This document shows, piece after piece, positions 10,252-13,488 of a stretch of 24,000 bases of DNA. The notes under the pieces are model-generated. The model did no database searches, was not told the DNA's origin, and worked only from the letters and a program-made list of their open reading frames with translations. Both the position numbers and the translations under genes were made by a program. Source of the DNA: Cyanobacteria bacterium P01_A01_bin.123 (GTDB lineage: Bacteria; Cyanobacteriota; Cyanobacteriia; Phormidesmidales; Phormidesmidaceae); contig JBCBZT010000036.1 in assembly GCA_039815185.1 (NCBI GenBank), forward strand, positions 50,584 through 74,583. Direction: 5' to 3'. Within the stretch, counting starts at the first letter, position 1, and the number at the start of each line of letters is the position of its first letter.

Positions 10252-10290
10252 ATTGGCTATCGAGACTTGCTGTTGCGGTTGGCGATCGCA

Positions 10291-10404
10291 CTGGTTCCCG
10301 GTGGTGCGCCGCTAGAGTTCTTCAAAGAAACCATTGTTCGTATCAAAGCCTATAAGAAGCGCAGTCTGAATAACGGACGTTTAGTGCGATTGTTCGCTTT
10401 GTAG
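10291..10404 (+). pseudogene. Orphan 3'-terminal fragment of a dsbA-like gene (37 codons plus stop)
   Basis: 10291-10322 is identical over 32 nt to dsbA 8097-8128 (ctggttcccggtggtgcgccgctagagttctt). The next ~60 nt are diverged but alignable. It translates LVPGGAPLEFFKETIVRIKAYKK..., compared with LVPGGAPLEFFEEAVIRIQEHNE... in the intact gene. There is no upstream dsbA body. Confidence 0.65.
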
Positions 10405-10661
10405 GATGCATTGCGACAAATCAATCCGTTAACTAGGAATACGCGTTTTGGGTTGGTATTGCAATTATATTCACCACAATCTGGTGCGGCATGGGTTGTG
10501 CAAAGGTTTAAGGACATGGTCATATATCAGCTTTCAGTGATTTATTAGCGATGGTGTCTATCTGCCAGATTAGGAGTAAGGGTAGAACCGAAAAAGCCTG
10601 CGGGGTTTTGGGATATTTGACTTGATGCATCGCGACACGTTCTACGCGATGAAGCGATCGC

Positions 10662-13488
10662 GCTTGATCCAGTAATTTTCGGGGTTGAGGGTTCATAGGT
10701 GGTAGATGCAGCACATGATCCTAACTTTGACATGCATAAATTGAGACCTACGGATAAACCTGGGTGACTATACTGTGACACCTTCAATATATCTACTCAA
10801 TGTCGATCCGATAAGAGTTAAACCTCTTGGCCTGAGCGTTATTGGCAACTCCTGCACATCAAATTCGTTAGCATACGTGCAACATTCAATACAAGAGGCT
10901 ATGATCGTGGGCAATTTTGAAGGCTTCCTCACAGAACATGTTAACCAGGAATGAGCTTTGGGATAAATTCGCAAATTATGAAAATTTTCTATTGGCTTGG
11001 CAAAGAACCGTAAATGTCACCAGCCGAATGGTTCATGAAAAGCTAGGAATGGAAATATTTGCATATAATCTCCAATCTAATCTTGAAGATTTGGTGCAGC
11101 AGGTCAAATCAGAAGATTTCCCTTACTCGCCTCTTGCTGATCACAAAGTTTACCTCCCAAAGCCATCGACTACTCTACGCACTATGTCATTGATGGCTGT
11201 TCCAGATGTAATTGTGTATCAAGCACTAGTTAATGTGATTGCTGATCACTCTCATTTTCACCTTGTAAGTCATGAAAATGAACACGTTTTAGGAAACCTT
11301 TATGCAGGAACCGGAAGGCGTTGGATGCTACAGCCATGGAAGCGCCAATATTCCAGGTTTGTAAAGCGCGTTGAGAAGTTATACGGCATTGGGAATTCTT
11401 GGATTGCCTCAACAGATATAGTGGCTTTTTATGACACTATTGATCATGAGAGACTATTGAGTCTAATTCGACAATATTGTGGCAAAGAAGATAAGTTTGA
11501 GAGCCTTTTTCGCCAATGTTTGTCCAAGTGGTCAGCACATAATGCAACTTCTACTATGGGTCGAGGTATCCCACAAGGTAGCAATGCATCTGACTTCCTT
11601 GCCAATCTATATTTACATGGAATAGATTGTAAGCTTATCTCTAGCGGATACCATTACATTCGATATGTTGATGATGTCAGAATTCTTGGGCCAGATAAAT
11701 CAACTGTTCAGCGTGGTCTTATATTATTTGATCTTGAACTAAAGTGTGCTGGATTGGTAGCCCAAGTTTCAAAAACAAGCGTTCATGAAATTGAAGATAT
11801 AGAGAAAGAAGTTTCGCGGCTCAGATTTATAATCACCGATCCAACTGGTACAGGTGAATATATTCTTCTTGAGACGCCTTCTCTACCTACTAGTGAGCAG
11901 GCTGGATCAGTCGAAAGCTTGGTAGAAAACACACCAAGTGAGCAAACAGAGTTTGAACAAAACGAATCGTGTAAAGATTGCCCTGATGAAGAGGAGGAAG
12001 GCTATGTTCCAGATCAAAATATTGATATACATGAATACAAATCTAAAAAACTTCAGGAACAATTACGCAATAAATTCTTAGAGGCATTTAACTTATTAAA
12101 CGATCTCGCCCGAGCTAAAGAAGCTGAGTCTCACATAACCTTTTGTTTATATCGACTTGAACCTCATATCACACTACGCAGCCAAGCAATTACCTTACTA
12201 TCTAGGTTGCCTTGGCGATCTGAAGCGATATCAGCTTTCTTAGGGCGATTTAAGAGTGATTCTTTTGTCATAGAGGAGTTAAGAAAATTTATATCTGAGC
12301 ATACAGTTTATTCTTGGCATCGTGCCAATACTCTTTGGACGCTATACAAAACAAGTGCAGCTAAGGATGTCGCACCTCAATGCAGGGAATGGTTGGCTAA
12401 TGATCAACTTGATTGGTATGCAAGAACAATTGCAGCAAGAATATTAGCAGAAGTTCCGAGTCAACACTCCTACCTAGTTGAATGCTTAAAAAAAGAGCAG
12501 AACAACACAAATGAAGATGGTGAGGCAACTTCTGTACTCCGTCAGGAATTAGCTTACAGTGCTTTTCGAAGAATAAAATCGTTTAAGAAACAATTAGCAT
12601 TACTACAACTTATTTGTTCAGATAAAAGCCCTATACTTCATCGACTAGCCATTTATATTCTTCAACAGCCTAAGTGCAAAGTAAAGTGGAACGATCTCAA
12701 ATCTTATCATAATAACTTAAGTATACTATCAGGTTTGATTGAGAAATTAGGCATATCAGATGATGTATCAAAGCCTTGCTTTATAGCTGAGACTATAACA
12801 AGAACATATCAAATTTATTTGCCTAAGACTGATCTTCGATTTCTCTATTCAAATCACTATGATAAGGCCATTGAAACTCTACGAGAATCCGTAATCTCTT
12901 TCCAAAAATCTCCTAGTTTATATGTGAGAAGCTTTCACCAATTTACACACACAACACTAATTGCATTTTATGAATATGCCCTTCCTTCAGAAGGAGGGAT
13001 ACGGACTTCGTATTACCACGATCTTATTCACAGAAAAGTATTTAAGGAAAAATGCCCGATTAGTGTGAGTACGTGGGAGAGGCTAAATGAGATGAGAAAC
13101 CTTGTTGATCACCCGATAGACAAGAAAACTCAATCTCATTCCAAAAAAATTACCGTCCAAGAAATTGAGTTTTTGCATAAACAAATTAAGGTGGCTCTTC
13201 AAGAACTCTTTGATTTTTGGTTGAGTATAAAGGTGCCGAAAAGCGATACAGCGACTTCAGATGCTATATTGACATCAGTTGAAGTCAGTACTGAAATAAT
13301 TGAAGCTACCGTAACTACTGTATCCTAGTCATGATGAAGTCTAATAATTCGCTTGGAGCACATTAACAGAAGCTCCTAGTGTATTGCGGTGGCTGTCTAC
13401 AGCTGCTCGAGCAAATCGTTAGGTAGTAGTGGATCTTCCCTTCCAAATCTTTAATTATACTTTCTGATGACGGGAAACTTCCTGTAGT
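10662..13488. other. AT-rich, HIP1-free insert (probable horizontally acquired cargo region) carrying the RT gene
   Basis: No GCGATCGC occurs between the copies at 10654-10661 and 13489-13496, whereas the rest of the window has roughly one per kb by eye. Base composition is visibly more AT-rich than both flanks. The exact borders are not defined, and no integrase or transposase is present. Confidence 0.55.
10938..13328 (+). CDS. Stand-alone reverse transcriptase fused to a HEAT-like helical-repeat region and a HEPN-like C-terminus (AbiA / UG class-1-like; candidate anti-phage RT)
   Basis: RT motifs 1/2: YLPKPSTTLRTMSLMAVPDVIVYQAL (about 11151-11231). Motif A: STDIVAFYDTIDH (Asp at 11415). 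Motif B: GIPQGSNASDFLANLYLHGID (from 11565). Motif C: YIRYVDDVRILG (YVDD at 11664-11675). Motifs D/E: GLILFDLELKCAGLVAQVSKTSV. These are followed by an acidic linker (11838-12035), HEAT-like repeats (e.g. DWYARTIAARILAEVP, SPILHRLAIYILQQP) and RNLVDH at 13095-13112. The track start is TTG 10917; ATG 10938 is more likely. Confidence 0.9.
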   Translation: MLTRNELWDKFANYENFLLAWQRTVNVTSRMVHEKLGMEIFAYNLQSNLEDLVQQVKSEDFPYSPLADHKVYLPKPSTTLRTMSLMAVPDVIVYQALVNVIADHSHFHLVSHENEHVLGNLYAGTGRRWMLQPWKRQYSRFVKRVEKLYGIGNSWIASTDIVAFYDTIDHERLLSLIRQYCGKEDKFESLFRQCLSKWSAHNATSTMGRGIPQGSNASDFLANLYLHGIDCKLISSGYHYIRYVDDVRILGPDKSTVQRGLILFDLELKCAGLVAQVSKTSVHEIEDIEKEVSRLRFIITDPTGTGEYILLETPSLPTSEQAGSVESLVENTPSEQTEFEQNESCKDCPDEEEEGYVPDQNIDIHEYKSKKLQEQLRNKFLEAFNLLNDLARAKEAESHITFCLYRLEPHITLRSQAITLLSRLPWRSEAISAFLGRFKSDSFVIEELRKFISEHTVYSWHRANTLWTLYKTSAAKDVAPQCREWLANDQLDWYARTIAARILAEVPSQHSYLVECLKKEQNNTNEDGEATSVLRQELAYSAFRRIKSFKKQLALLQLICSDKSPILHRLAIYILQQPKCKVKWNDLKSYHNNLSILSGLIEKLGISDDVSKPCFIAETITRTYQIYLPKTDLRFLYSNHYDKAIETLRESVISFQKSPSLYVRSFHQFTHTTLIAFYEYALPSEGGIRTSYYHDLIHRKVFKEKCPISVSTWERLNEMRNLVDHPIDKKTQSHSKKITVQEIEFLHKQIKVALQELFDFWLSIKVPKSDTATSDAILTSVEVSTEIIEATVTTVS

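Follow-up and report, generated by a model that had tools for sequence, protein, structure and literature searches.

The only characterised protein in which a reverse transcriptase (RT), an alphaRep segment and a HEPN domain follow one another is AbiA of Lactococcus, which synthesises single-stranded DNA (ssDNA) by a protein-primed, template-independent route (PMC11077055). The HEPN domain of AbiA carries the motif RNSNPVSH and is required for dimerisation (PMC11077055). A further group of RTs, UG19, was classified by Mestre et al. 2022 (PMC9226505), who predicted an anti-phage role for it and listed its extra domain as 'unknown', with "very distant homology with HEPN". We describe here a gene of the 'large' form of this group (UG19-large), located in a 24,000-nucleotide stretch of cyanobacterial DNA (contig JBCBZT010000036.1, positions 50,584 to 74,583; the window in what follows) and analysed computationally. 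The original prediction, made from the letters of the window, had proposed that the C-terminal part of this RT is possibly a fused HEPN ribonuclease (RNase) effector, and had pointed to AbiA as a precedent for an RT-repeat-HEPN arrangement, correctly so according to PMC11077055. Conservation, the fold predicted by AlphaFold2 (AF2), structure searches with Foldseek and an in-register profile-profile alignment with hhalign all support the fusion of a HEPN domain to the RT, and we hold with high confidence that the C-terminal domain is a divergent member of the HEPN superfamily, in fold as well as in homology. A HEPN relationship of UG19 has been suggested in print before, if only tentatively (PMC9226505), and the gene adds one member to a group already described.

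The gene lies at 10938-13328 on the forward strand, as defined by the list of open reading frames (ORFs), the translation, the PADLOC model RT_UG19 and the database copy of the protein. It runs from an ATG at 10938 to a TAG stop at 13326-13328 and encodes 796 amino acids; the database copy (P0002) is identical and begins at the same ATG. An in-frame TTG at 10917 is an alternative start and yields an 803-residue frame (10917-13328 translated). RT_UG19 is matched at E=1.3e-155 over residues 15-768, from profile positions 3 to 561 of 562, and this model beats every other UG, DRT or Abi model, the second best being UG21 at 1e-65. The extra C-terminal domain is encoded in the same ORF as the RT, which is the 'large' variant, and the UG19 profile reaches into it as far as residue 768. 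The protein is thus a full-length member of UG19-large, a class 1 UG/Abi RT, and shares with the published group the RT, the alpha-Rep segment and the fused extra domain. It differs in length, given that the cyanobacterial clade to which it belongs has 796 residues here against a profile of 562 positions, with an acidic linker and additional repeats. With AbiA it shares the order RT-alphaRep-HEPN, although the two belong to separate families: the AbiA model of PADLOC matches the RT core only (residues 75-257, E=1.9e-16), that is, 2e-16 against 1e-155 for UG19.

The motif on which the original prediction was built, R-N-L-V-D-H (R-N-x3-H), is encoded at 13095-13112 (+) just as claimed, and the three helix-like peptides quoted beside it are all found in the translation. 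It corresponds to residues 727-732 in the 803-residue numbering and stands 71 residues before the C-terminus, where about 70 had been given. The proposed span of 12830-13328 is right at its end, while its start falls one base before a codon boundary and hence out of frame; the in-frame position is 12831. The prediction had itself called a six-residue motif weak evidence, and shuffling agrees. The loose form R-x4-6-H occurs six times in the RT protein against 4.4 expected from composition, and so means nothing alone. The strict form R-N-x3-H, with 0.057 expected per protein, appears in 5.3% of whole-protein shuffles and in 1.1% of shuffles within the last 170 residues. Given that the motif is only mildly unusual by chance, its significance rests on the evidence from conservation, fold and profiles.

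Conservation of R and H, which had been named as a check of the prediction, proved to be complete: the two residues are invariant in all of the approximately 80 C-terminally complete homologues recovered. They are invariant in the 25 close homologues, in a set of 17 sequences of the domain alone with identities as low as 28%, and across the roughly 80 UG19-large proteins. In the close clade the following P is also invariant, and the D of the resulting P-x-D is invariant or nearly so (>=90%). The residue after the Arg, which the prediction had noted as polar, is N in RNLVDH and in most homologues. A distant clade (P0131-P0143), with about 30% identity over the RT, was recovered by a profile search with the full-length alignment and is likewise assigned to UG19 by PADLOC (E<1e-136). 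Its motif reads R-N-x5-H-P-x-D, so that R-x6-H replaces the R-x4-H of the cyanobacterial clade by an indel of two residues. Even so, only five positions of the C-terminal domain are invariant in that clade, and R653, H660 and E676 belong to them. The persistence of R and H in two clades despite an indel within the motif suggests that the pair itself is used. In one member of the distant clade, P0143, the motif RNNLPGSH resembles the RNSNPVSH of AbiA.

The domain as a whole is rare, since phmmer, run exhaustively against 1.84 billion representative proteins, returned only 16 clusters that contain it. A match of a different kind was seen in P0043, a highly repetitive protein of 1171 amino acids, in which 15 stretches match the 29-residue stretch of domain residues 75-103 (E=3e-12); this looks like an artefact of the repeats with no relation to UG19.

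When the domain alone was modelled by AF2 from 17 sequences, the result was a confident four-helix structure, with a predicted local distance difference test (pLDDT) of 82.6 and a predicted template modelling score (pTM) of 0.75. Its helices span domain residues 17-38, 42-64, 93-107 and 123-146, and an insert of 28 residues separates the second from the third. In the window, the HEPN-like domain as delimited by AF2, Foldseek and hhalign occupies 12780-13226 (+), and its parts in the AF2 model are helix 1 (H1, 12837-12902), helix 2 (H2, 12912-12980), the insert (12981-13064), helix 3 (H3, 13065-13112), a loop (13113-13154) and helix 4 (H4, 13155-13226). The motif forms residues 103-108 of the model; it closes H3, is followed by the loop, and, with the conserved P-x-D after it, has the form of the R-x4-H signature of HEPN domains. 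The order H1-H2-insert-H3(motif)-loop-H4 agrees with the definition of the superfamily by Anantharaman et al. 2013 (PMC3710099). The model therefore has the canonical HEPN topology, and the placement of the motif in the last helices of a four-helix bundle, as originally proposed, is upheld at the end of H3. An invariant acidic residue, E125 in domain numbering, stands at the start of H4.

In a Foldseek search of the Protein Data Bank (PDB) with the domain model, the better-fitting matches are mostly HEPN domains. They include AF0298 (2hsb; probability 0.99, target-normalised TM-score, TMt, of 0.65), sacsin (3o10; TMt 0.54-0.61) and the HepT toxins 7ae6, 5yep, 6m6u and 7bxo, with 4nqf, 1wwp, 1ylm and HepS 9oik as further HEPN matches. 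The authors of the AbiA study report similar structural neighbours for the HEPN domain of AbiA, namely sacsin and HEPN toxins (PMC11077055).

Profile-profile comparison, also among the proposed checks, places R and H in register with a known HEPN family. Three accepted HEPN-clan families of Pfam served as templates for hhalign, their alignments being built from genomic matches in cyanobacteria. Against the HepT-like family (DUF86, PF01934), found in MNT-HEPN toxin-antitoxin pairs, the UG19 domain gives its best match, with a probability of 63.8%, a pairwise E of 6.6e-5 and a score of 30 over 67 columns. The W-x6-R-x4-H of the query is aligned onto the W-x6-R-x4-H of HepT, so that W, R and H coincide. 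Forty column shuffles of the HepT alignment score 10.2 +/- 1.7 with a maximum of 15.1, and the reversed alignment scores 13.9; the observed score is thus about 12 standard deviations over the shuffles. Against NTase_sub_bind the match is weaker but again in register (9.5%, E=0.0034). As controls, the accepted pair HepT and NTase_sub_bind yields 72% (E=3.3e-5), while PF05168 against either of these two gives less than 1% and is not significant. Measured by these controls, UG19 and HepT are linked no less strongly than accepted HEPN families are with one another. The likeness to HepT extends to the presence of HepT structures among the Foldseek matches. In contrast to HepT, which is a free toxin with an MNT antitoxin, the UG19 domain is fused to an RT; its H is followed by P-x-D and not by the x-Y of HepT (W...R-x4-H-x-Y), and its H1 and H2 are longer. 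At the family level, the stretch with the motif is also weakly matched by NTase_sub_bind of Pfam in one homologue (E=0.021). A match to Ribonuc_2-5A (E=0.058) was discounted because it covers H1-H2 and not the motif.

The results that weigh against our interpretation concern either the homology itself or the use made of the motif. As to homology, the domain could be an unrelated four-helix bundle in which R-N-x3-H resembles HEPN by convergence or chance. Bundles of four helices are widespread and R-x4-6-H often arises by chance, and none of the conventional searches returns a significant match: the best Foldseek hit of the domain model against the PDB has E=0.17, a profile hidden Markov model (HMM) of the domain finds nothing at E<=10 among PDB sequences, and scans of the domain and 26 homologues against Pfam and NCBIfam detect no HEPN family at threshold. 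PF01934 is unmatched by the window domain or by 17 homologues even at E<=10, and the C-terminal domain is covered by no Pfam family. A profile of the full-length proteins of the distant clade matches only RT domains among PDB sequences, and no AbiA chain. Finally, hhalign fails to align the domain with the canonical HEPN family PF05168 (0.2%, no similarity), even though members of that family, AF0298 and sacsin, are its best structural neighbours and have the same four-helix topology. Against coincidence stand the predominance of HEPN domains among the better-fitting Foldseek matches, the in-register HepT alignment that equals an accepted HEPN-clan pair, and the invariance of R and H. Hence, we regard an unrelated bundle as improbable.

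Within the HEPN interpretation, the use of the motif is less certain. From the sequence and the predicted structure, we tentatively propose, at a little under even confidence, that R727-N-x3-H732 is a catalytically used motif and the domain an RNase effector coupled to the RT. Two HEPN copies would pair and bring their R-x4-H motifs into one composite site, as in other HEPN proteins. This site would be an effector that cleaves RNA independently of metal, or would at the least contact RNA or ssDNA, and during phage infection it would be linked to the DNA synthesis carried out by the N-terminal RT. If AbiK, Abi-P2 and AbiA are a guide, this synthesis probably needs no template and is primed by protein, and the UG19 protein would have a role in defence. 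The alternative is a HEPN fold without RNase activity, that is, a dimerisation or scaffold module like that of AbiA, needed by the polymerase and possibly binding the ssDNA product or RNA, with defence achieved through the DNA made by the RT. We consider this somewhat less probable, although much of what is known about AbiA speaks for it. The HEPN domain of AbiA, whose motif has the spacing x6 against x4 in RNLVDH, appears to be non-catalytic: it shows no RNase activity in vitro on several substrates, and the R581A, H588A and double mutants retain full defence against the phages tested (PMC11077055). AbiA truncated to residues 1-478, without the HEPN domain, is monomeric and has no polymerase activity (PMC11077055), and the domain order in UG19 is the same. 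These results come from few phages in a heterologous host, however, and the AbiA authors do not exclude another role for the domain. In UG19 itself, the acidic residue of HEPN helix 2 (E-x3-[KR], present in many families but not all) is not conserved, the E of AFYEY in H2 being replaced by R, Q, N or K in homologues, and the N after the Arg becomes I, K, V or L in a few of the approximately 80 UG19-large homologues. The neighbours in the window are housekeeping genes and do not form a defence island. In the literature searched, UG19 is named only in two classification studies and no experimental test was found, nor is there a UG19 structure among the PDB matches. On the other hand, very few residues remain invariant in both of the deeply diverged UG19 clades, and R and H are two of them despite the two-residue indel, which suggests selection on the pair and not just on the fold. 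Given this invariance and the small number of fixed residues, a functional site is slightly favoured over a purely structural role. A more specific version of the catalytic proposal is correspondingly more doubtful, though possible: the UG19 HEPN domain, unlike that of AbiA, may be a live RNase triggered by the activity of its own RT or by the DNA product, so that sensor, polymerase and effector would be joined in one polypeptide, with R-x4-H and R-x6-H as natural variants of one active site.

The remainder of the protein fits the group to which it is assigned. The RT fingers and palm domain (10959-11816, +) is defined by Pfam RVT_1, the sole Pfam match in the RT protein (E=2e-14, residues 158-290), and by PDB profile matches to group II intron RTs, DRT9, DRT2 and UG15; its catalytic YVDD (residues 250-253, 11664-11675) is intact. 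It is followed by an acidic linker (11817-12032, +) that is poorly conserved and predicted to be disordered, and then by an alpha-Rep/HEAT-like helical solenoid (12033-12749, +), which is also indicated by weak HEAT_2 matches of Pfam in homologues. A full-length AF2 model from an alignment of 25 sequences is poor in the RT part (pLDDT <50) and in the acidic linker (residues 269-368 of P0002, pLDDT <50). For residues 366-604 of P0002 it confidently (pLDDT 75-95) predicts a solenoid made up of helices only and, with pLDDT of 75-95 as well, a separate C-terminal helical domain for residues 615-763. Foldseek matches of the full-length model comprise the HEAT solenoids of AP2, COPI and PP2A, the designed alpha-Rep 3ltj (TMt 0.61) and defence RTs, and this search is swamped by the HEAT solenoids. 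The layout of RT, linker, alpha-Rep and C-terminal domain corresponds to the class 1 UG/Abi plan of Mestre et al. 2022. After the HEPN-like domain, the protein ends in a low-complexity tail rich in T, S, V and E (13227-13325, +), predicted to be disordered (pLDDT <50) and, judging from its ragged alignment, not conserved.

The linker opens with a TDPTGTGEY block (11835-11861), the Tyr of which (Y315 in the 803-residue numbering) is kept in 22 of the 25 close homologues, the rest of the linker being variable. Because the priming tyrosines of AbiA lie in an equivalent flexible loop, Y315 may, speculatively and by analogy, be considered a candidate priming residue.

With respect to its genomic setting, the RT gene stands out from its surroundings. 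The region 10662-13488 has a GC content of 35-41%, compared with approximately 48-55% in the flanks, and none of the 28 HIP1 sites (GCGATCGC) of the window falls within it, where about three would be expected from their average spacing. The low GC content and the lack of HIP1 together suggest that the gene was horizontally acquired. It is flanked upstream by the gene for an Mrp/Nuo-type antiporter subunit and downstream by an MscS channel gene with a cyclic nucleotide monophosphate (cNMP)-binding domain. Between the upstream flank and the RT lies an ORF-poor leader of 685 nucleotides (10252-10937), which matches no Rfam family. When 12 loci were compared, a conserved upstream non-coding RNA (ncRNA) or template found no support: L001, the closest related locus, can be aligned with only the last approximately 80 nucleotides of the leader (about 10840-10921), and this, with the negative Rfam result, leaves no sign of a conserved ncRNA.

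Of 401 cyanobacterial genomes sampled, 10 gave a UG19 match, with several copies truncated or split, and we count this sporadic distribution and the decayed copies, as well as the low GC content and the lack of HIP1 in the window gene, towards a defence context. A single-sequence locus search of genome contigs recovered only one relative, and the domain had no tblastn match on plasmids or phages. Like the window gene, its relatives are single genes without conserved partners. The stand-alone domain next to UG19-small that was reported by Mestre et al. was also looked for, but this split architecture was not confirmed, since the short matches were all either fragments at contig ends, such as P0039, whose frame runs off the contig, or truncated genes. 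Two decayed copies, from other cyanobacteria, may be described individually. One (L037:1441-2526) is an N-terminally truncated UG19 remnant of 361 amino acids that lacks the RT and adjoins a tandemly duplicated ORF of 195 amino acids; the other (L038:1432-3620) is a UG19 gene split, with a TAG stop, into pieces of 182 and 473 amino acids.

Other HEPN-related or defence genes were noted at some of these loci. The distant UG19 gene encoding P0143 lies beside Piwi and SIR2_2 genes, a pair of the prokaryotic Argonaute (pAgo) type (L042:1-10939). Further neighbours at that locus include AAA_23/AAA_21, HATPase_c and GIY-YIG genes and a DDE transposase, and the locus is an apparent defence island. 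With the housekeeping neighbours in the window, the genomic context bearing on a defence role is mixed. In a metagenomic relative (L002:754-1512), the gene directly downstream of UG19 begins with EVRNQAVHH, another R-N-x3-H, followed by the P-loop GGGKTHT; judged from these motifs, a second defence gene, of the HEPN-NTPase type, may be present there. In the source genome itself, the HepT-like family PF01934 is matched at least seven times and the HEPN family PF05168 once (contigs C92, C114, C95, C76, C24, C133, C63 and C47). These matches presumably represent MNT-HEPN toxin-antitoxin pairs, in which case the organism is rich in free-standing HEPN toxins.

Taken together, our results support the tentative published link between UG19, an RT group with a predicted defence role that is known from classification in the literature searched, and the HEPN superfamily. 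To that link they add a domain boundary at approximately residues 622-770, a predicted HEPN topology, the invariant R727 and H732 as candidate catalytic residues, the x4/x6 spacing variant of the sister clade and the in-register connection to HepT, thereby turning a one-line remark into specific, testable claims. A catalytic motif would set UG19 apart from AbiA with its structural HEPN domain, and RT-HEPN fusions would then use HEPN in more than one way. If it is non-catalytic, the view of HEPN domains in Abi-type RTs as dimerisation scaffolds would be strengthened. Either outcome for UG19 would be incremental rather than surprising.

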